From Candidatus Hermodarchaeota archaeon (GTDB taxonomy: Archaea; Asgardarchaeota; Hermodarchaeia; Hermodarchaeales; Hermodarchaeaceae): a stretch of 64,000 nucleotides of DNA. Shown piece after piece: positions 22,354 through 33,325 of this stretch (its first letter is position 1; each line of letters begins with the position of its first letter). The DNA is taken from assembly GCA_016839805.1 (NCBI GenBank), contig JAEOTO010000007.1, positions 1-64,000 of the forward strand. Direction: 5' to 3'. A program made the position numbers and the translations under genes. The notes beneath the pieces were generated by a model that ran no database searches, had not been told where the DNA came from, and was given only the letters and a program-made list of their open reading frames with translations.

Positions 22354-22539
22354 CTGACTTCCCTACTAGTTAAGGTGATTGTAACATTGCATTTTAGCGT
22401 TACGCCTCACTATCTTTTTGCGTTACGTGCTTGCATCTAACATTAGGGATTCGTGAGGGCGACAAGCTTATATAAGAGGTTAAGATACCACGTAACTAGG
22501 CTTAACACTGTTAAGGAAACTAAATGGAGGAACAAAGGG

Positions 22540-22809
22540 TTGCCAGTAAAACAGAATAAAACTAAGACTAGTGAAGTCGAAATCCATCAAAGTATTGACG
22601 CCAGAGGGCTATATTGTCCAATCCCCGTCTATAAAACCCGACAAGCGGTCCTAGAAGCAAAATCACAAGAAGTAATTGAAATTCTAGCCGATGACCCTGC
22701 AGCTGAAGAAGACATTTCTCGCTGGGCCAAGCGTACGGGGAATACCATTCTCTCCCTCGAGCACTGTGATGATTACATTCGGTTTCTAATTCAGAAAACA
22801 GATAGGTGA
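22540..22809 (+). CDS. tusA: TusA/SirA family sulfurtransferase
   Basis: DARGLYCPIP and ADDP...DI..WA motifs. TTG start at 22540 after GGAGG, in frame with ORF 22453..22809. Confidence 0.88.
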   Translation: MPVKQNKTKTSEVEIHQSIDARGLYCPIPVYKTRQAVLEAKSQEVIEILADDPAAEEDISRWAKRTGNTILSLEHCDDYIRFLIQKTDR

Positions 22810-23177
22810 AAGACATGACAAAGAAAATATTATATGTCGTAACCAGCGGGACCGATACTCCTGACAGATTATATGCTCCCTTTGTTTTGGGTACAACTGC
22901 GAAGACCATGGGAATTGATGCAACGATTTATTTTATGATGAGGGGTGTTACAGTGATCAAAAAGGGAGAAGCAGAAAAAATCCAGATGGGAGCCTTCCCA
23001 CCATTAAAAGAGGTTATTGATCAAGCTATCGACGCTGGTGTCGAGCTGATGGCTTGTGATCAAAGTACACAAGTGCTGGGAATCGAACGGGGTGGTTACG
23101 TTGATGCGTGTGGGATAGTTGGCAGCGCGACTTTAAATGATCTTGCGCTGGAAGCTGATGCAATTCTTACATTCTAG
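22806..23177 (+). CDS. DsrE/DsrF-like sulfur relay protein
   Basis: DsrE-type pattern: APF..G..A, GVELMACDQS with conserved Cys; overlaps tusA by 4 nt. Confidence 0.82.
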   Translation: MKDMTKKILYVVTSGTDTPDRLYAPFVLGTTAKTMGIDATIYFMMRGVTVIKKGEAEKIQMGAFPPLKEVIDQAIDAGVELMACDQSTQVLGIERGGYVDACGIVGSATLNDLALEADAILTF

Positions 23178-23209
23178 AGAGAAACGGAGAAAGATGGGAG
23201 GGACCTGGA

Positions 23210-24436
23210 ATGGTGGACCAAATAAATTTCAACCACAGTGCTGGAGTACCCATTGATGAACGTGTGCTCCAAGTTATGGAACCCTATTTCCGTCAATTCT
23301 ATGGTAATCCCTCATCAGTCCATAGTGCTGGGCAACAATCTGCAAAGGCTATTGAAAACGCGCGAGTTCAAGTAAGTCGGCTAATTGGAGCAGAAAGTAA
23401 AGACCGAATTATTTTCACTAATGGAGCCACCGAAGCTAATAATCTCGCTCTACAGGGGTTCGCCTACCGTCATCGTCGAAAAGGTAACCACATAATTATC
23501 TCCCAAATGGAGCACCTAAGTATCATTAACACCGCAAAATTTCTTAGCAAACAAGGATTCGAATACAGTCAAGTGAAAGTTGACGAATATGGAGTAGTCG
23601 ATGCTCAAGCATTACAAGACGCGATTACTGATCAGACCATCTTGATTTCAATACAACATGGCAACAATGAAGTAGGAACTCTTCAACCAATCGCTGAAAT
23701 CGCGAAAATCGCTAATGATGCCACAATTCCACTCCATGTTGATGCAGTAGCCAGTGCAGGTCAAGTGCCCATAGAAGTCACTGATATGGGAATTTCAATG
23801 CTATCACTCTCCTCTAATGATATATATGGTCCAAAAGGTGTTGGTGCCCTATTTGTAAAACGAGGAATCTCAATTCAACCAATCTTGCTCGGTGGTGGTC
23901 AAGAATATGGGATTCGCTCTGGATCCGAAAATGTGGCAGGTATTGTTGGTATGGGAGCTGCCGCAGAAATTGCTAAACAACAGCTCGAAAAAAATGCCAC
24001 ACACCTAAGACGCCTTCGCGATAGTCTGATTAAAGGTGTTTTAAATAAAGTGGATGAAGCCTACTTAAACGGGCATCCTAAAAATCGGCTTCCCAATAAT
24101 GCGAATATACGATTTGCGTTTGTTGAAGGTGAAGCTATCACTCTTCATCTTAGCTTCCAAGGATTCCTTGTAGCAACCAGCTCAGCTTGTACTTCAAAGA
24201 CTCTAGCCCCCTCTCACTGTCTTCTCAGTATGGGCGTCTCTGAAGCTGAAGCTCATGGTGCCTTACAACTCACACTCGGTCGGGAAAATACCCTAAAACA
24301 AGTCGATCGATTCGTAGAGGTCCTTCCCCCAATCATTAAAAAACTGCGGGCTATGTCACCCCTATCAAAAGAGGTCCCCTACGATTTATATGAAGATGAG
24401 GAACATGACCATGAACATGGTCAGGAACACGATTAA
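23210..24436 (+). CDS. iscS: IscS/NifS-family cysteine desulfurase homolog (PLP Lys replaced by Asp)
   Basis: GNPSS, GATEANN, NNEVG, HVDAV, SSNDIYGPKG, RSGSEN and SSACTS motifs. Confidence 0.9.
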   Translation: MVDQINFNHSAGVPIDERVLQVMEPYFRQFYGNPSSVHSAGQQSAKAIENARVQVSRLIGAESKDRIIFTNGATEANNLALQGFAYRHRRKGNHIIISQMEHLSIINTAKFLSKQGFEYSQVKVDEYGVVDAQALQDAITDQTILISIQHGNNEVGTLQPIAEIAKIANDATIPLHVDAVASAGQVPIEVTDMGISMLSLSSNDIYGPKGVGALFVKRGISIQPILLGGGQEYGIRSGSENVAGIVGMGAAAEIAKQQLEKNATHLRRLRDSLIKGVLNKVDEAYLNGHPKNRLPNNANIRFAFVEGEAITLHLSFQGFLVATSSACTSKTLAPSHCLLSMGVSEAEAHGALQLTLGRENTLKQVDRFVEVLPPIIKKLRAMSPLSKEVPYDLYEDEEHDHEHGQEHD

Positions 24437-24445
24437 GAAATACAA

Positions 24446-24853
24446 ATGGAGATGAATACAAACATGTACACTCAAAAAGTCATTGAACACTTCACTAATC
24501 CCCGAAACATGGGTGAAATGGAAGACGCCGATGCCATAGGTAAAGTCGGTAATCCAACCTGTGGAGATCTTATCTGGATTTATATCAAAGTCAAAGATGA
24601 CATTATAACTGATATAACCTTCAAGACCTTTGGCTGTGCAGCGGCCATAGCAACTAGTAGCATGATCACAGAACTAACCAAGGGGAAAACTCTGAAAGAA
24701 GCCTATCAAATAACGCGAAATGATGTGGCTGAAAATTTAGAAGGGTTACCGCCAATTAAGATGCATTGCTCAAATCTATCTGCTGATGGATTACATAAAG
24801 CCATTGAAGAATATCTTGAAAAAAATGGTCGCACAATTGATGATCTAAAGTAA
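24446..24853 (+). CDS. iscU: Fe-S cluster scaffold IscU/NifU-N
   Basis: HFTNPRNMG, CGD, FGCAAA and LPPIKMHCS; three conserved Cys. Confidence 0.95.
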   Translation: MEMNTNMYTQKVIEHFTNPRNMGEMEDADAIGKVGNPTCGDLIWIYIKVKDDIITDITFKTFGCAAAIATSSMITELTKGKTLKEAYQITRNDVAENLEGLPPIKMHCSNLSADGLHKAIEEYLEKNGRTIDDLK

Positions 24854-24865
24854 TAATCGAAAGGT

Positions 24866-25243
24866 TCAATCAGAGGAATCGATGAACCTGTCGATGATCG
24901 TCTTGAAGGTCTCAGATGAGAGAGCACCTTTTATTAGGTAATCTTTTGCTCCCATCTGCATTACCTCTTGAACAGTTTCATCATCATCAATAGCAGTCAA
25001 TGCTACGATAACGATATCTGGGTACTCACGGGTTACTTGGGAGATGAGGTCAGTCCCACTTATTTTAGGTAAAACGAGATCAACAAAGAAAATATCAGGA
25101 GGATTAGCCTTGATTTTTTCCAGTGCTTCTTCGCCATCAACCGCTGTTTCTATTTCATAATCGCGGAGTAAAAACTTGGCAGCACGAAGAAAAGTTTCTG
25201 AGTCATCTGCTAGTAGAATTCTAGGCAATTTCTTGGAACCCAA
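24866..25243 (-). CDS. single-domain response regulator (REC)
   Basis: LADD, VDLVLP (phospho-Asp), LTA and GAKDYLIK motifs. Confidence 0.9.
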   Translation of the reverse strand: MGSKKLPRILLADDSETFLRAAKFLLRDYEIETAVDGEEALEKIKANPPDIFFVDLVLPKISGTDLISQVTREYPDIVIVALTAIDDDETVQEVMQMGAKDYLIKGALSSETFKTIIDRFIDSSD

Positions 25244-26675
25244 CTTGGGGTTTACCCTCCTTAAGCTGAGTGTAGATACAATATTGCGGAGTCGACGGAT
25301 TAATCCCTCGCAAGATAGTGACCCCTTCTTTCACCTCTAACTCGACATGAATATCGGCTAAATCAGCAAGGTATCGGTTAATCTCGGGTGTACTACTGTA
25401 CCCAATTGTTACAGCTAAATTACTTTCAGTTGCAGTATCGTTTGTGATGCGTGTAGCCCATCTCGGAAGTTCGCTAGGTCCGACCCATGAGTGTAACCAT
25501 CCAAAGCCTATAACACTTAACAGATCTTGACAACCTTGGTTCCGTAGCTCTTCGAGAACCATACTCCAGGCATTTTCGAGGTCAGAGCTCTCTCGGAATG
25601 CGACGGTTTTGTAATATGGTTCACCAAGTTCGCCAGCAGCACTGGATACTCCCAGACTAGTAGCTGCACTAGTGAACAGGCGGAGATGTGTGTTGAGTTG
25701 GTCGACGAAGCCATATCGAAGTGCTGCCGCTTTCAATCTTCGGAAGCTAAGTTTGTTTGGTGGGACAATTATGACTCCACTTTGTTGACGGAGGAAGTTA
25801 GCGATCATACTCAGAACTAGGGTGTTGACGACTTCGTTGGAAACGCCTTCTAAAACGTCTATGAAAAACGTGCTTCCACGGCGGAAACCTCCGAAAATGG
25901 TGTCCATTTCTTGGATGCCTGAAGAGAACCGCCCAGCTGCATGAGGAATGACTTGGAAGTTTGATATGCGATGGGCTAGCTCTGCATCATAGGAATAAAG
26001 TATAGAAAAGTGACTGTTTCTTAATGAAAATCCCCGCTTACCTCTATCAATTGATGTTCCCCGTAATTTTAGCAATTGCATACTGCGCCACATACGGCCT
26101 TCCGTTTGTGTTTTTGTAACACAAATGATCCCGTCAACAATATGATCTAAAGGTGATTCCTCAATACCTTCTTGAACTAGAATAATTTTAGCGTAGAGGC
26201 TACGACCTAAATTCGTGAGAGCACTGGTTAGTCGTTGGGGATCAGCTTGGGCTGCTTCAATGATTGCATCAAAGGAGTCGATTACACATACAGGTGATGA
26301 AAGATCCCGGAGTTGATCATTGACAGCACTAATGAAAGTAAGTTCATCAGAGTATACAATTCGCTGCTCAATTGCATCATCAGATCTTATCTGGCTTTCT
26401 GGCATTCCCATTAGTAGTGGTGTTGCATCAATGATATTGTTAGCTGGAAATTTTTCGAACGCCCAGGGGAACTGTGTTCGTAAATTTTCACTCGCTACTC
26501 GTGAAGAGAGATAGATGAAGTTGTTCACTTTGAATAATTTCGGTAAGTGTTGTGAAAGTTCATCTAGAAGCGATAAAACAAAGGTACTTTTTCCGGTTCC
26601 CGCCCTTCCCTTAACTAATAGGGTTTGTCCTTGTTCCTGTTTGAGGAATTCAAGTAATTCCGGAGGGAGTGCCAC
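25221..26675 (-). CDS. GvpD-like/RAD55 double-domain KaiC-family ATPase
   Basis: GRAGTGKS, IDS and LLKLRG in the first domain; second degenerate domain starts FSSGIQEMDTIFGG. Confidence 0.8.
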   Translation of the reverse strand: MALPPELLEFLKQEQGQTLLVKGRAGTGKSTFVLSLLDELSQHLPKLFKVNNFIYLSSRVASENLRTQFPWAFEKFPANNIIDATPLLMGMPESQIRSDDAIEQRIVYSDELTFISAVNDQLRDLSSPVCVIDSFDAIIEAAQADPQRLTSALTNLGRSLYAKIILVQEGIEESPLDHIVDGIICVTKTQTEGRMWRSMQLLKLRGTSIDRGKRGFSLRNSHFSILYSYDAELAHRISNFQVIPHAAGRFSSGIQEMDTIFGGFRRGSTFFIDVLEGVSNEVVNTLVLSMIANFLRQQSGVIIVPPNKLSFRRLKAAALRYGFVDQLNTHLRLFTSAATSLGVSSAAGELGEPYYKTVAFRESSDLENAWSMVLEELRNQGCQDLLSVIGFGWLHSWVGPSELPRWATRITNDTATESNLAVTIGYSSTPEINRYLADLADIHVELEVKEGVTILRGINPSTPQYCIYTQLKEGKPQVGFQEIA

Positions 26676-26689
26676 GTGCTTCTACACCT

Positions 26690-27238
26690 TCAGCCTTTCT
26701 TAGGAGGGGGATTTGTAGTGTGTTCCAAGAGAAACTTGGAGATTGTCTGAAAGAGCTCCTTGACATTTGTCCCATCTTTCGCGGATGTCTCCATATATCC
26801 AAGCATCTTGAGGTCCTTCGCCAGCTTCTCAGCCTCTGCAGGCTTAACAACCCGTGAATCGGCTAAATCAACTTTATTACCCACCAAGAAGAGGAGAACC
26901 TCTGGTGCACCTTGTCTAACATCGTCAACCCACTCTTTAACGCAATCCAAAGTATCCTTACGAGTTACATCATAAACGACAATAGCAAAATCTGTACCAA
27001 AGAGATATTGTACACGAACTCTTCGAAAGGATGTCTGTCCAGCTAGATCCCAGACCTGTAAGGAGACGAGTGAATCGGCGACTGATGTCTTAAATGAGGA
27101 TATTGCCGCTCCAAGTGTCGCTTTGTAACCTTCATCAAAAGAATTCGTCATATACCGTTTTATAATAGATGTTTTACCAACAGCATAATCGCCAATCAAA
27201 GAGACTTTGAACATGAATTGGCTACCTTTCGCTTCCAT
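26690..27238 (-). CDS. Rab-like small GTPase
   Basis: G1 GDYAVGKTS, G2 YKATLG, G3 WDLAGQ, G4 GNKVD, G5 ETSAK. No C-terminal Cys prenylation motif. Confidence 0.93.
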   Translation of the reverse strand: MEAKGSQFMFKVSLIGDYAVGKTSIIKRYMTNSFDEGYKATLGAAISSFKTSVADSLVSLQVWDLAGQTSFRRVRVQYLFGTDFAIVVYDVTRKDTLDCVKEWVDDVRQGAPEVLLFLVGNKVDLADSRVVKPAEAEKLAKDLKMLGYMETSAKDGTNVKELFQTISKFLLEHTTNPPPKKG

Positions 27239-27338
27239 TTTTTTCTATCACCAACCCCTATCTGTTTACTCCCTGGGTACAATGGATTCGTTTAATGAAA
27301 TTTAAGCCCTTGGTTTTCAATAAGATTACTCCTTGATG

Positions 27339-28157
27339 TTATTGGATAGGTGGTAAATCTGAAATCTGTAATCCCTTGTCACCAATGATGAGCAGGAGAG
27401 GATTCATTTGGTGACTCGTTCCGCGCATCTTTCCAATTTCAATTGTTCGTATTCGAACATTTCCCTGGCTCATTAGCTTCATCATTAGAACTCCATCCAT
27501 AAGAAATCCTTCCACATCGAAGCGTCCTATACTTGTTTCAGTGGGACTCTCTACAGCGACTAAGCAAGTGGCTTCGCTCATCCGTAGGGAACGGACTAAA
27601 TTCAATAGGTCATGTCGAATACGAAATAGGTCCTTGTGTTGGAGGGTTAGTGTGGAAATGGAATCAATTGCTACACGTTTAGCTTTAATTCGTCGGATTT
27701 CACGATGAATTAATGATAGTAACGATTCCATCGTAAATTCTTCACGACCAAGCACAGGATGTTCAGGTTTCAACACTACTCGCTCGTTTTGAATCATAGG
27801 CGATGCATCGACTAGCGCTAATTTGCCGGTTTCCATCAATTCCTCAAGCTTCCATCCAAACTGGTCCATATTACGGAAAGTCGAAGCAAGAGATTCTTCC
27901 ATGGAAACTAAAACCCCGGGTTCATCGAACTCAGTTGCACCCATGTAGAGAAACTGGTTCATCAAGATCGATTTTCCGGTTCCGGGGCCACCACTAATGA
28001 GGATCACTGAACCCTTGGGAAAGCCACCGTGCAATGCTTCATCTAACCCTGGAATGCCTGATTTGGTCTTTTCAGTCACACTAATCCCCCGATTAGGTGG
28101 TCTCCTTACAAAGAAGTAACCTTTATTGTAGTTTAATAGGTTTGTGTCTCTTCTCAA
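27339..28157 (-). CDS. KaiC/RAD55 family ATPase
   Basis: SGIPGLDEALHGG, GGPGTGKS, SMEE, IDSI and KMRGT motifs. Likely start GTG 28079. Confidence 0.9.
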   Translation of the reverse strand: MRRDTNLLNYNKGYFFVRRPPNRGISVTEKTKSGIPGLDEALHGGFPKGSVILISGGPGTGKSILMNQFLYMGATEFDEPGVLVSMEESLASTFRNMDQFGWKLEELMETGKLALVDASPMIQNERVVLKPEHPVLGREEFTMESLLSLIHREIRRIKAKRVAIDSISTLTLQHKDLFRIRHDLLNLVRSLRMSEATCLVAVESPTETSIGRFDVEGFLMDGVLMMKLMSQGNVRIRTIEIGKMRGTSHQMNPLLLIIGDKGLQISDLPPIQ

Positions 28158-28279
28158 TATAATGGTAAACGACTACAGACTTCCCAAAACCTTTTTTCGT
28201 GTACAATGAGACTAGAGTATAGTTCGGGCTCCAGATTGGGTGATGAATGAAAGCACGTTAATTCTCAGAAGGGGCTATT

Positions 28280-28987
28280 ATGCTTCTCGATCCTATACTT
28301 CATGGAGGACTCCCACACGGTGCTAGTATTGTACTGGTAGGTTCTCCTGGTTCGGGAAAAACCTCTTTTTGCCTCCAACTAGCTCTTGAAGCAACTCATA
28401 ATGGGCAAGATGCTCTTTACTTATCAACTGAGAATACACCGTCCAATATCATCCAACACTCTCGGAGCTTTGGCATTCCACTTGGATCGAATGTTAAAGA
28501 AAATAAAATTCAATTCGTCGATGCTTATAGCTGGCGCCTTGGCATGCGAAAAGATCCTTTTGCAATCAGTCGAATTAGTAATCCAGGTAACCTAAATGAG
28601 GTTAATTTGATTATTACTGATCAAGCAAAACTATTAGCGCCAGGTTCTTTGATTGTAATAGATTCTGTTTCTGGCCTAAGTCTTTCTGCTCCAGATGAAC
28701 AGCGAATTCGTACTTTTGTTCATAGCTTGGCTCAACGGATATCTACAATGGATAAGATACTGATGTTCATCCTGGAAGATCAAGCTCATGATATCAGACT
28801 GATAACAAACCTCCGATCACTTGTACATGGCTCAATACAAACTAAAACCGTTGATGGTGCCGATGGTTGTCTATACTGGAAGATTCGGATGTACAGTCTT
28901 ATCGGGGCAAATCACGCTACACGCTGGTTTAATAATTTACTCGGGGCAAAGGGCTTAACACTAAATGGAGGGACGACCGATAAGTGA
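28280..28987 (+). CDS. RAD55/KaiC family ATPase
   Basis: LDPILHGGLP, GSPGSGKT, STE, VDAYSW and IDSVS motifs. Confidence 0.85.
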   Translation: MLLDPILHGGLPHGASIVLVGSPGSGKTSFCLQLALEATHNGQDALYLSTENTPSNIIQHSRSFGIPLGSNVKENKIQFVDAYSWRLGMRKDPFAISRISNPGNLNEVNLIITDQAKLLAPGSLIVIDSVSGLSLSAPDEQRIRTFVHSLAQRISTMDKILMFILEDQAHDIRLITNLRSLVHGSIQTKTVDGADGCLYWKIRMYSLIGANHATRWFNNLLGAKGLTLNGGTTDK

Positions 28988-29660
28988 GTTAATCACAGTG
29001 ACCTTTGCACCCAAAGGGGCATTAGAAATCCCCCGAGGGTCTCAAATCCTAATCGTCGGTCCTCCAGGCGTCGTAAAAACTACTTTTGCACTTAGATATC
29101 TAGCAGACAGATTGAAGGGAAATGAACAAGCGGTATTTGCCACGACTCTTTGGTCCCCTGAGCAAGTACGTGAAACCATCAGTCAGTTCGGTAGTAAGAA
29201 ACTCGCAACACAACTTCGTATAGCAGATGGAGTATCTTGCGTAACAGCTCGCCCTTCATCAGAACCGTTTGCTTTTCAAAATCTTTACGATTTAAACACT
29301 ATCAGTCTCGTGATGATTCAAGCCATTTCTGATATCAAAAATGGACATCTCTGTATAGATAATCTAACAACCCTCATGACTTACTCAGCCCCTCTGTTGG
29401 TAATTAAGTTTTTACAAGTACTTTGCGCCAGAGTCAAGGATCGAGGGTTAACAGGGCTTTACTTACTCGAAGATGGCGTCCACTCAAAAGAAGTCGTAGC
29501 TACTTTACGCTTTTCTGTCGATGGAGTTATCGAAATCCACGATGAAGAAGAATCCGATGAACTCATTCACAAAATCCGATTAGTACATCTTCGTGGAACC
29601 CAAGTTGATACACGATGGCTATTATATAACGAAAAACGACCTCTCCGACGAGTATCATAA
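28965..29660 (+). CDS. RAD55/KaiC family ATPase with degenerate Walker A
   Basis: GPPGVVKT, IDNL, DGVIE and LRGT motifs; overlaps the upstream paralog. Confidence 0.8.
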   Translation: MEGRPISELITVTFAPKGALEIPRGSQILIVGPPGVVKTTFALRYLADRLKGNEQAVFATTLWSPEQVRETISQFGSKKLATQLRIADGVSCVTARPSSEPFAFQNLYDLNTISLVMIQAISDIKNGHLCIDNLTTLMTYSAPLLVIKFLQVLCARVKDRGLTGLYLLEDGVHSKEVVATLRFSVDGVIEIHDEEESDELIHKIRLVHLRGTQVDTRWLLYNEKRPLRRVS

Positions 29661-29734: not shown

Positions 29735-30352
29735 CTAAGCTTCTTGAATACTTTGAACGTTTGTTGGTCTCAATCTTTGATTTACTTCTTCTGAATTCGG
29801 AGTTTCTTTTGATTTCGGTGGAAAAAGATAGTAGATCATGTCCTCAAAAGTCTCGATAAAACCGGGGACCAGTACGATAGCTACAATACAGAGAATAAAA
29901 ACACCTACTACTCCAAGGACAAAACTCATGGGGTAGTGAGCAAGTTCCCAAGGGAGTATTCCCAAATACACTAACCAGATTTCATATACGACTCGAAGAA
30001 CGTTTGCCACAAAAAGCATGATAGTGACAACTATTACTGCAAGAATTTTTCTGGGCCATGTCCCCCGTGGCAATGGCAAAATCAATCCAGCAAATACGGC
30101 GATGACTTGAATACCAGTACATTCACGTACGATTTGGAATTGTTGAAATCCTATGACGGCAACGTAAACGGCTCCATGCAACCAATCGACAGTGATGACT
30201 GAAGGAACCCCTATCCACGTGAGTAAAATTGCTGAAACGTAAGCGGTTGGAATAGCAAGAATGAATGGTTGGGGTAAGAAGTATACTAAAAGCGTTACAA
30301 TCACAGCAATACATAGGTACAAAACAAGCGCTCTAGGAGTCGGCCTTTCCAT
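29735..30352 (-). CDS. exosortase/archaeosortase family protein
   Basis: Catalytic-triad pattern ECTG (Cys), NVLRV (Arg), AHY (His); multi-TM. Start placed at ATG 30352 (MERPTP); the ORF stays open to 30523. Confidence 0.85.
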   Translation of the reverse strand: MERPTPRALVLYLCIAVIVTLLVYFLPQPFILAIPTAYVSAILLTWIGVPSVITVDWLHGAVYVAVIGFQQFQIVRECTGIQVIAVFAGLILPLPRGTWPRKILAVIVVTIMLFVANVLRVVYEIWLVYLGILPWELAHYPMSFVLGVVGVFILCIVAIVLVPGFIETFEDMIYYLFPPKSKETPNSEEVNQRLRPTNVQSIQEA

Positions 30353-30566
30353 GTCTTCAGAATCCTCTTCAGCTTCTCTTGTTTCCTCGTCACGGGCTAT
30401 TGTTGTTTTGTCCGTGGTTATTGGGTTCACCGTCCTGGTCGCTGGTGGAGTTGCTTTCATTTTAGGATTAAATCTTCTGGGAGAAGCTCTCGTTCTTGCG
30501 GGCGTGTTTCTCTTTGCGTTCACAATGCTGTGTTATTTGGCTGCACGCCGCAACCGGAACCAATAA
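30351..30566 (+). CDS. small two-TM membrane protein
   Basis: MSSESS...two strongly hydrophobic helices...RRNRNQ basic tail. Confidence 0.45.
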   Translation: MSSESSSASLVSSSRAIVVLSVVIGFTVLVAGGVAFILGLNLLGEALVLAGVFLFAFTMLCYLAARRNRNQ

Positions 30567-30649: not shown

Positions 30650-33325
30650 TTATTTCCAAAGTGGCAGAAGGAACACAAATTTTGCTCCTTTAGAATAATC
30701 ATTTTCTACCCGATTTTCAACCCAGATCTGGCCACCATATCTTCCAATTATTCTTTGAACGAGTGTTAATCCAATTCCAGACCCTTGGGCTTTCTCACCT
30801 ATCCGACGGGTAAACCTAGCGAAAATTAATTTCTTCAATTCATCTGAGATTCCAGGACCTTGGTCGGTTAATTCAATTCTTAAAAACCGTTTGTTATCAT
30901 CCGGGCTCACATTGACTTCAATCTCAACCTTTTCTCGGCGATCGAATTTGGTTGCATTGTGTAATAGGTTATAGAAGAGATCAAGTAACAATTCATCAGC
31001 TAAGATCATGTATTTTCCAGGATGTATGTTGGTATCAACCCGAATGGTCTTCTTTGGAAATGCTTGTTTAACTGCATTTAACGCACTCTGGAAGTCGGGT
31101 TCTATATCCCGCACCCCTAAATGTGGTCGTGTTGCATCAATTCGCGAAAACTTTCTAACACGACCAATTAGAGCGGAACTCCTCTCCACTTGCTCTAATG
31201 CAACCTGAAGCTGTTCACGAAGCGGTTCAGGAACATCAGGATCATAGAGTTGAATTTCTAATGCTGATAATATCGCTTGGTTGATGTTATTTAGATCATG
31301 CGCCATTAAATCAGTGAAAAATTCAGCTCGAGCTTTCGCCTCCTCGAGTTCTTTTTCTGCTTCTTTACGCTCTGTTATGTCACGGGCAACTAGAATGTAG
31401 CCTAATGGTACACTTTCTGCTCCATAAAGAATTGCGGCACTGATATCCGCTGGAAAAGTAGAACCATCTTTATGGATAAGTGTAAATTGTTCGGGTTTAG
31501 CAATACCTGTTTCTTTTGTAGATTCCAGGTTTTTGATGGCTCTCTTCCGATCCTCCGGTATTACCAATTCAAAACAACTTTTTCCAATTAATTCATCGAT
31601 TGCATCATATCCAAGTAATTTGATTGCTCGATCATTCACTAATGTGATATTTCCCTCTGCATCCGTAACCATGATGGCATCAGGTGAGGTTTCAACAAGT
31701 GCACGATAACGAGATTCAGATTGTTTGAGGATATCGTCTGCAATCATACGTTGAGTAATATCGCGACATACACCACGAAATCCAATAACCTGATTTGATT
31801 CATCGAAAATAGGTCGTGAACTCGTTTCCAGAATCAAAGTGTTTCCATCACGATGGAAAAAGTGATTGACTAAACTTCGAAATGAGCGATTTTGGTTCCC
31901 ACGTTCAGAAAAAGTGGTTCTTACTTCTTCGATTTCTGAAGGTTCCATTAAATCCCATAGTTCTCTTCCAATGATTTGTCCAGCTGTATAGCCCAATATA
32001 TCTTCAACTGAACAATTAGAATAGGTGAATTTGAACTCTTGGTCTACTTCCCAAACCCAATCAGCAGTGTCTTCAACAAGTAAACGGAATTTCTCTTCAG
32101 ATTCTTTGAGCGCCTCTTCAGCGATTTTTCGTTCCGTTACATCCTCTCCAGAACTAAGTATTCCCGTCATAGTTCCATCATCTTCACGAAGAACTGTCGT
32201 ATGCCACTGAATGATGCGCTCGGATCCATCCTTTCTGATGATAGGGTTTTCCACAAACTCTTTTAATTCACATTGTCCAGTCAAGGCTTTTTCATAAAAT
32301 TCCTTCATTGCTGTGCGGTTAGGTTCAGTGATGCAGGTATCAAAATAATTCTGACCTATCAGTTCGTTTTCCGTATACCCGAAAATTTCACAGGCTTTCC
32401 TATTAACTAGGAAAATACGCTGTTGTACATCAATCCCTATAAATGCTGCACCAGCGATTTCTAAATATTGCTGCCCTCGATCGCGTTCGTGGAATAGCGC
32501 CTCTTGCGACACTTTGCGTTCAGTAATATCTCTTGTAACTTCAACACATCCAATGACATTTCCTTCTTCATCCTTGAGTGGATAACCACGAATGAACCAA
32601 TACCGACCATCAGGTGTGCTCATTTCATTCTCTTTGACCTCACCGGTTTTTCGGGCTTCGACTATCGGGCATCCTTCACAAGGAGTTTCCCTTCCAGGCC
32701 AAACTTCGTAGCAAAATCGGCCAGTTATCTCATCAAGGGTAAGGTTCACTGAATCTGCGGCAGCTCGGTTCGCCCATATAATCCGGTTTTCCATATCCTG
32801 ATAGATTACATGTTCAGAAATGCTATCCAAAATGAGGGACTTTTCTTCAACTATTTTTTTCAGAGCCAACTCACTCTCTTGTAATACTCGCTCAATTTCC
32901 TTACGTTCACTGATGTCCTTTTGAATTGAAATCGAATAAAGAACTTGACCATCATCATCCATAATCATGTTGGCATTCAGTAAGACCGTACGCTGGTGCC
33001 CTTCCCTATTTTGAATGATAAGTTCCTCATCGGAAATCGAGGCATTTTCCTTCCACCTTTTGAAAATCTCCATAACCTTGTCCTGGCATTCATCGGCATA
33101 AATGGTCCGAATGTGTTTACCAATTAATTCTACACGGCTATAACCTAAAGCCTGAAGAGCTGATTGGTTAACATCGAGGATTATTCCTTGAGGAGAGATC
33201 ATATAACAATACAAGGGTGCATTTTCGAAAAACAAGCGAAACCGATTATCCTCATCACGCTCCTTGGAATCCTGCGCGTCTGGCCTATTCAAAGACATAA
33301 TTTTGCACCATGACATTGAAGCCAA
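30650..33325 (-). CDS. multi-PAS sensor histidine kinase (cytoplasmic)
   Basis: Five PAS/PAC repeats ending DI(S/T)ERK-like; H-box AHDLNN; N-box NLLHNA; DQGPG and GSGIGL. Confidence 0.93.
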   Translation of the reverse strand: MASMSWCKIMSLNRPDAQDSKERDEDNRFRLFFENAPLYCYMISPQGIILDVNQSALQALGYSRVELIGKHIRTIYADECQDKVMEIFKRWKENASISDEELIIQNREGHQRTVLLNANMIMDDDGQVLYSISIQKDISERKEIERVLQESELALKKIVEEKSLILDSISEHVIYQDMENRIIWANRAAADSVNLTLDEITGRFCYEVWPGRETPCEGCPIVEARKTGEVKENEMSTPDGRYWFIRGYPLKDEEGNVIGCVEVTRDITERKVSQEALFHERDRGQQYLEIAGAAFIGIDVQQRIFLVNRKACEIFGYTENELIGQNYFDTCITEPNRTAMKEFYEKALTGQCELKEFVENPIIRKDGSERIIQWHTTVLREDDGTMTGILSSGEDVTERKIAEEALKESEEKFRLLVEDTADWVWEVDQEFKFTYSNCSVEDILGYTAGQIIGRELWDLMEPSEIEEVRTTFSERGNQNRSFRSLVNHFFHRDGNTLILETSSRPIFDESNQVIGFRGVCRDITQRMIADDILKQSESRYRALVETSPDAIMVTDAEGNITLVNDRAIKLLGYDAIDELIGKSCFELVIPEDRKRAIKNLESTKETGIAKPEQFTLIHKDGSTFPADISAAILYGAESVPLGYILVARDITERKEAEKELEEAKARAEFFTDLMAHDLNNINQAILSALEIQLYDPDVPEPLREQLQVALEQVERSSALIGRVRKFSRIDATRPHLGVRDIEPDFQSALNAVKQAFPKKTIRVDTNIHPGKYMILADELLLDLFYNLLHNATKFDRREKVEIEVNVSPDDNKRFLRIELTDQGPGISDELKKLIFARFTRRIGEKAQGSGIGLTLVQRIIGRYGGQIWVENRVENDYSKGAKFVFLLPLWK

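Follow-up and report, generated by a model that had tools for sequence, protein, structure and literature searches.

A cluster of six genes at positions 24866 to 29660 of the window (the whole stretch analyzed here, positions 1 to 64,000 of contig JAEOTO010000007.1 of a “Candidatus Hermodarchaeota” archaeon) places a Rab-like small GTPase among KaiC-family ATPases, a GvpD-like protein and a response regulator receiver (REC). The stable core of this cluster is the GvpD-like gene together with the receiver gene. The Rab gene is under purifying selection but detachable, and either side can be lost alone. The reading preferred here, which we find about as easy to believe as to doubt, is that a histidine kinase, the receiver and the GvpD-like protein form a module with KaiC1 and a KaiC2/KaiC3 pair, and that the Rab serves the same pathway as a switch that is co-expressed but optional. 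The first-pass annotation had gone further, proposing a hybrid switch that couples a eukaryote-like GTPase to KaiC and two-component phosphosignaling. The linkage behind that proposal does recur beyond this genome, but the data do not support a dedicated hybrid switch: the Rab was lost alone in a sister genus and survives alone elsewhere, and it has a promoter-like motif of its own, as does GvpD-REC in every deeper lineage examined.

The predicted layout was borne out by the open reading frames (ORFs), with KaiC1, Rab, GvpD-like and REC genes on the minus strand and KaiC2 and KaiC3 on the plus strand. The receiver gene (24866 to 25243) encodes a stand-alone protein of 125 amino acids and overlaps the gene for the two-domain GvpD-like protein (25221 to 26675, 484 amino acids) by 23 nucleotides (nt), with a start backed by the conserved N terminus M-x-S-K-K. 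A gap of 14 nt separates the GvpD-like gene from the Rab gene (26690 to 27238, 182 amino acids), which in turn lies 100 nt from the single-domain KaiC1 gene (27339 to 28079, with an open frame to 28157 and an uncertain start). KaiC2 (28280 to 28987) and KaiC3 (28965 to 29660) diverge from this run and overlap each other by 23 nt. The genome of the window (G000; 2.3 Mb, 87% complete, about 2,300 genes) belongs to the lineage Hermodarchaeia, with H03M_Hermod_104 (93%) and “Ca. Hermodarchaeum yapensis” (81%) as relatives. It holds about 23 small GTPases, giving any gene an approximately 2% chance of a GTPase neighbor, as well as seven clear KaiC-like matches (four of them in the cluster), three strong REC domains (one being the cluster receiver) and four histidine kinases.

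The receiver matches PF00072 with 79 bits against a cut-off of 30, and the residues expected of CheY-like receivers, namely the phospho-acceptor D55 with D13/D14, T83 and K105, are invariant in an alignment of 17 orthologues. By sequence, the partner protein belongs to the GvpD family (PF07088, 60 versus 24 bits; PF20440, 37 versus 27.9 bits, with a match covering only about 73 of 254 positions). Its AlphaFold2 model (predicted local distance difference test [pLDDT] score of 88) has two alpha/beta domains, and its best fold match in the PDB is KaiC (E value of 3e-25; template modeling [TM] score of about 0.38). Walker A, the Walker B Asp and a KLRG finger are intact in the N-domain, and in the alignment SSRV replaces the catalytic EE of KaiC1; Walker A is missing from the C-domain. 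The earlier label of a double ATPase is therefore apt for the two RecA/KaiC folds but not for two active sites, as the only P-loop lies in the N-domain, where the catalytic Glu is absent. The 23-nt overlap with the receiver gene is retained as far as a Thorarchaeota copy. In metagenome contigs L097 (6558 to 7936) and L101 (1174 to 2620), the GvpD-like gene is split over two frames, through either a frameshift or an assembly error.

KaiC1 (PF06745, 216 bits) is the only KaiC-family chain of the cluster that carries every catalytic motif, namely Walker A (GGPGTGKS), the EE pair, Walker B (IDS) and the KxRG finger (KMRG), and it is the best-conserved cluster gene (73 to 96% in Hermodarchaeia and 57% in Thorarchaeota). 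KaiC2, which is KaiC/RAD55-like (PF06745, 90 bits), retains Walker A and one Glu and lacks the Lys/Arg finger. KaiC3 (PF06745, 81 bits; PF24336, 54 bits) is an inactivated, DUF7504-like protein that lacks the catalytic Glu and retains the Arg finger (xLRG); its degenerate Walker A, GPPGVVKT, was confirmed and is conserved across the genus, and K38 and R210 are invariant in 14 orthologues. The complete set of motifs is thus absent from the single chains of KaiC2, KaiC3 and the GvpD-like protein. The division of motifs between KaiC2 and KaiC3 is preserved in the sister genus, in a hot-spring relative and in Thorarchaeota. Because the finger acts in trans in RecA/KaiC rings, we propose that KaiC2 and KaiC3 function jointly. 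The candidate cognate kinase of the receiver is a soluble histidine kinase with five PAS domains, HisKA (below cut-off) and HATPase_c (30650 to 33325, minus strand), which is syntenic within the genus (g1). In Thorarchaeota copy L200, kinases lie directly behind the receiver gene.

The Rab protein is a Ras-superfamily small GTPase (PF00071, 161 bits against a cut-off of 21.6) with intact G1 to G5 motifs (GxxxVGKT, T41, DLAGQ, NKxD and ETSAK) that are invariant in an alignment of 21 orthologues, and its top PDB sequence matches are Rab6/Ypt6 (E value of 1e-39). It lacks the C-terminal prenylation cysteines of eukaryotic Rabs: no Cys lies among the 14 C-terminal residues in 16 orthologues, nor in the tail of the window protein. 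Ratios of nonsynonymous to synonymous substitution rates (dN/dS) of 0.05 to 0.19 indicate purifying selection; against the nearest relative the value is 0.09 for Rab and 0.04 to 0.07 for its cluster neighbors. The orthologues form a well-supported clade (FastTree, 0.996; Shimodaira-Hasegawa-like approximate likelihood ratio test, 99) that, in the set of sequences compared, has members only in Hermodarchaeia.

The order KaiC1-Rab-GvpD-REC is found in all 11 same-genus genomes that have DNA at the site. Rab also precedes GvpD in four deeper relatives (GvpD identity of 55 to 66%), including a Great Boiling Spring contig, and the linkage extends to a Thorarchaeota copy, so that it is not peculiar to this genome. 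Rab adjoins GvpD-REC even where an opposite-strand LplA gene parts it from KaiC1. An ORF of 101 amino acids between Rab and GvpD at the hot-spring locus matched no family and is probably not a gene. A second Rab in a hot-spring contig (L091, 117 to 3145), sister to a paralogue in the window genome (G000 C33:72016), heads two genes with TackOD1 (response-regulator output) domains that adjoin the KaiC cluster directly.

Losses are found on both the Rab side and the cluster side. Rab is missing at three of three loci of the sister genus (g2); no orthologue was found in four of its genomes (80 to 83% complete; best matches, 40 to 44%), where none of the top 30 matches fell inside the Rab orthologue clade. 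The GvpD tree places the Rab-less genus together with the hot-spring copy, which does have Rab (bootstrap, 88); this argues that Rab is ancestral and was lost in that genus; the occurrence of the orthologue clade on both sides of the GvpD root likewise argues that Rab is ancestral at this site. In a wetland lineage (L106), the sortase gene, an intact Rab and iscU are present, and KaiC1-3, GvpD and REC are gone. The order in L107 is the same, with an internally deleted Rab. L104 lacks KaiC1-3 upstream and its contig ends 35 nt past Rab; it therefore documents upstream loss only, and loss on both sides of Rab is documented by L106 alone. The genomes of L104 and L106 are unbinned and could carry the cluster elsewhere. 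Their Rabs nest inside the orthologue clade, and Rab-only copies alter Y18, A19, F49, P112 and G147, all of which are invariant in cluster-linked copies. Genomes G003 and G010 lack GvpD and Rab, and as iscU is also missing, these are probably assembly gaps. The constant co-occurrence expected of an obligate GTPase-KaiC-REC system is therefore not found, as g2 lacks Rab and L106 lacks the cluster.

Of 21 loci, 17, among them the two with Rab alone, have the motif CTT(A/T)AAT 62 to 84 nt upstream of the Rab start, although synonymous sites are near saturation among these loci; the chance of its occurrence is about 0.03 per 45-nt interval. The copy in the window lies 68 nt ahead of the Rab start, between KaiC1 and Rab, as part of a conserved sequence resembling a B recognition element and TATA box (AACC-x5-CTTAAAT, 27300 to 27318, minus strand), which is a putative promoter whose box occupies 27300 to 27306. 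In every lineage examined outside the genus, GvpD has its own TTTAT box about 45 to 60 nt upstream, and the Rab-GvpD gap, where Rab is present, is 134 to 377 nt. Within the genus this box is gone, the gap is 14 to 26 nt, and most loci have an AAGGTG element about 8 to 10 nt before the GvpD start (26685 to 26690 in the window, minus strand) that may serve as a Shine-Dalgarno sequence. Loss of the box and the short gap suggest that Rab-GvpD-REC is probably one transcript in this genus, as a derived state; read-through from KaiC1 into Rab is possible without being needed. The four-gene operon first envisaged is thus only partly supported: the spacing favors joint transcription of Rab, GvpD and REC, but a conserved internal promoter motif precedes Rab, and only in this genus are Rab and GvpD closely coupled. 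A scan for sigma-70 promoters and terminators, the wrong model for archaea, gave results at chance level.

GvpD-like genes were detected by alignment search in 116 of 400 Asgard genomes, and 100 loci outside Hermodarchaeia were mapped. A receiver gene lies within 300 nt at 30 of these loci (in six families), and a small GTPase lies within 4.5 kb at 25. The sister clade of the window GvpD (support, 1.0) consists of two Thorarchaeota. In one, the orthologous cluster is complete: kinases lie behind REC, the 23-nt overlap is present, and a Rab (33% identical) is positioned behind KaiC3. The other has lost KaiC1-3, and Rab and GvpD-REC stand back to back. A KaiC-KaiC-GvpD-REC cluster without a GTPase was found in one further lineage. 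In Promethearchaeaceae (Lokiarchaeia), a GTPase follows the GvpD-like gene at 11 of 11 loci, including that of the cultured Promethearchaeum syntrophicum MK-D1 (WP_147662823.1 and WP_147662822.1, respectively). The same order occurs in Baldrarchaeia with a 9-nt gap, spacing between stop-to-stop frames being −45 to +42 nt in both groups, and Freyarchaeia have the two genes as convergent pairs. The slot directly after the GvpD-like gene holds a GTPase in 18 of 103 cases, versus at most 3 of 93 in other slots. The adjoining GTPases do not form one clade (approximately unbiased [AU] test, P = 0.008, Baldrarchaeia copies included); a single origin of those of Hermodarchaeia, Thorarchaeota and Lokiarchaeia is neither rejected nor demonstrated (AU, P = 0.51 to 0.83) in trees of short sequences with poor deep resolution, in which the constrained trees outscored the result of the quick free search.

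Several other arrangements were seen among Asgard contigs. The expectation that Asgard Rabs usually lie by roadblock or longin genes proved weak in the window genome, where only 1 of 23 GTPases has a PF03259 gene no more than 5 kb away (longins were not searched). Metagenome contigs that are probably from Thorarchaeota (L108, L113, L116, L118, L121, L123, L125, L126, L129 to L133, L136 to L138 and L150) share a separate conserved arrangement, in which one Rab points away from a set of roadblock, thioredoxin-like, KaiC and KaiC-like genes and has behind it first a WD40 gene in convergent orientation and then another Rab; loci of the L108 type were rejected as the same system, as their Rab belongs to a different clade and roadblock and thioredoxin-like genes intervene. 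A Freyarchaeia family (L204, L206 and L211) has two or three GvpD-like paralogues within 8 kb. In Helarchaeota (L219, 2809 to 3759; L222, 1947 to 2900), a roadblock-GTPase fusion lies approximately 0.8 kb upstream of the GvpD-like gene on the same strand.

From the gene identities, motifs, conservation, reciprocal losses and upstream motifs observed, we infer phosphotransfer, binding, a transcript map and a shared pathway as follows. The PAS histidine kinase, probably that at 30650 to 33325, would phosphorylate D55 of the receiver, and the phosphorylated receiver would bind the translationally coupled GvpD-like protein, a predicted scaffold that binds nucleotide but hydrolyzes little or none of it. 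KaiC1 would be the sole fully active ATPase. KaiC2 and KaiC3 may complement each other in a mixed ring, the first contributing a P-loop and the second, in which the P-loop is broken, the finger that KaiC2 lacks. The Rab would be an accessory, soluble GTP/GDP switch that in the ancestral state formed its own transcription unit within the cluster. With loss of the GvpD-REC promoter in this genus, Rab, the GvpD-like protein and the receiver would share the Rab promoter and be co-expressed. Rab is probably an optional input or output of the pathway and not an obligatory subunit.

It is possible, although we regard it with some doubt, that the Rab is a mere neighbor: one of the approximately 23 scattered GTPases that landed in the KaiC-REC cluster of the Hermodarchaeia ancestor, stayed through slow rearrangement, and became co-transcribed after accidental loss of a spacer. 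Retention of its own promoter motif in Rab-only loci, the reciprocal losses of Rab and cluster, the absence of a GTPase within 4.5 kb of 75 of 100 other GvpD-like loci, and the multiple clades of GvpD-adjacent GTPases all fit this alternative, as do the unrelated IscS/IscU, sortase and acyl-CoA dehydrogenase genes, which are just as syntenic. It accounts less well for the orthologous Thorarchaeota cluster, which also has a Rab in a different chromosomal setting, for the tight GvpD-like/GTPase coupling in Promethearchaeaceae (11 of 11) and Baldrarchaeia, and for the changes at otherwise invariant residues in Rab-only copies and the internal deletion in L107. A shared pathway with an optional Rab is in turn weakened by several observations. 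Conservation within the genus equals background synteny, the whole surrounding 16-kb block, which runs from the acyl-CoA dehydrogenase gene past IscS/IscU to the genes for the sortase and the PAS kinase, being equally kept. The Rab of L106 is intact without the cluster and under purifying selection (dN/dS, 0.06 to 0.13). The excess of GTPases after GvpD stems from few lineages and is weak when these are counted independently: it comes from 4 of 35 GvpD lineages, excluding the discovery clade (P = 0.005 at a 2% background and 0.1 at 5%), and of the four two are co-directional and two convergent. Furthermore, a convergent gene pair and the sortase gene separate the PAS kinase from the cluster, and the kinase does not adjoin the hot-spring copy.

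That the GvpD-like protein, with the phosphorylated receiver and KaiC partners, binds the Rab directly as a GTPase-activating protein (GAP), guanine nucleotide exchange factor (GEF) or effector appears unlikely. Tight GvpD-GTPase gene coupling recurs in three Asgard classes, a common origin of the Hermodarchaeia, Thorarchaeota and Lokiarchaeia GTPases is compatible with the trees, and the cluster contains no roadblock gene of the GAP/GEF type. Nevertheless, the Rab side and the KaiC/GvpD/REC side each persist alone, the close spacing is confined to one genus, with wide gaps and a separate TATA-like box elsewhere, and the Rab retains the switch-II Gln (Q68), so that no unusual activator is needed. 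Prediction of the GvpD-like/Rab complex with GTP and Mg scored 0.00, which is no answer and counts neither way. The broader proposal that receiver-gated GvpD-like proteins act directly on neighboring Rabs in several Asgard classes is also improbable. A circadian-type clock or gas-vesicle regulator, suggested by the Pfam KaiC and GvpD labels and the fold match to KaiC, is scarcely credible: KaiC1 scores far below the clock-protein cut-offs (TIGR02655, 161 versus 546; PRK09302, 186 versus 408), the GvpD-like protein scores 26 and 38, respectively, with Walker A missing from its C-domain, and kaiA, kaiB and gvp genes are all absent from the flanks of the cluster. A search of the window genome with PF00741 gave no match, but neither did the control.

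Beyond the cluster, a TusA-DsrE-IscS-IscU sulfur-relay/Fe-S gene cluster (22453 to 24853) faces REC in convergent orientation and keeps its synteny throughout the family. On the other side, the long N terminus of an archaeosortase-like ORF (29735 to 30523, minus strand) overlaps an opposite-strand ORF (30261 to 30566, plus strand); the C-terminal part of the latter is hydrophobic and is found conserved in L104 as well. The probable start of the sortase is near 30352, and the plus-strand ORF is probably a small two-helix membrane gene.

To our knowledge, Asgard archaea encode dozens of Rab-like GTPases each, for which almost no regulators or effectors are known; the cluster offers candidate partners for one Rab clade. 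Should the coupling prove genuine, it illustrates how pre-eukaryotic GTP switches became integrated into the KaiC and two-component signaling of archaea, and if the action is direct, GvpD-like proteins are a prokaryotic class of regulators or effectors for Asgard Rabs. Otherwise, the locus amounts to a KaiC-receiver hub of the ordinary kind. Adjacency of the GvpD-like and GTPase genes in MK-D1 makes the question testable in a living Asgard strain. Conserved neighborhoods are missing for most genes of eukaryotic signature proteins, and “eukaryotic” regulators feeding two-component systems have already been proposed for Asgard archaea (bioRxiv 10.1101/2020.10.19.343400). Literature searches, which did not cover the 2017 hub survey of Makarova, Galperin and Koonin, returned no paper joining Asgard archaea, KaiC and a GTPase.

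The embedded GTPase is a new element, not described in the literature searched, in an otherwise known type of archaeal KaiC-receiver hub. KaiC-REC fusions and inactivated KaiC domains are described for such hubs (PMC5847659); the likeness lies in the grouping of several KaiC-family genes, some active and others inactivated, around a receiver gene, and the difference in the Rab-like GTPase inside the present cluster. Haloarchaeal GvpD is a repressor of GvpE that regulates its partner through a nucleotide-binding P-loop and protein-protein contact (PMC4390858). The GvpD-like protein shares the P-loop N-domain and a second domain matching GvpD_bR2, but it has a receiver as partner gene and no gas-vesicle or GvpE neighbors. 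The cyanobacterial KaiC clock shares the double RecA/KaiC fold, but at 17% identity and a TM score of about 0.38, with a dead C-domain and a cluster lacking KaiA and KaiB. The Rab resembles other Asgard Rab-like GTPases (Thorarchaeota Rab, PDB 7EZB) in its G1 to G5 motifs, closest similarity to Rab6/Rab5 and lack of a prenylation motif. Unlike the Rab of the LAMTOR1-Rab-DENN operon (bioRxiv 10.1101/2020.10.19.343400), its neighbors are KaiC, GvpD and REC genes rather than roadblock and DENN genes.

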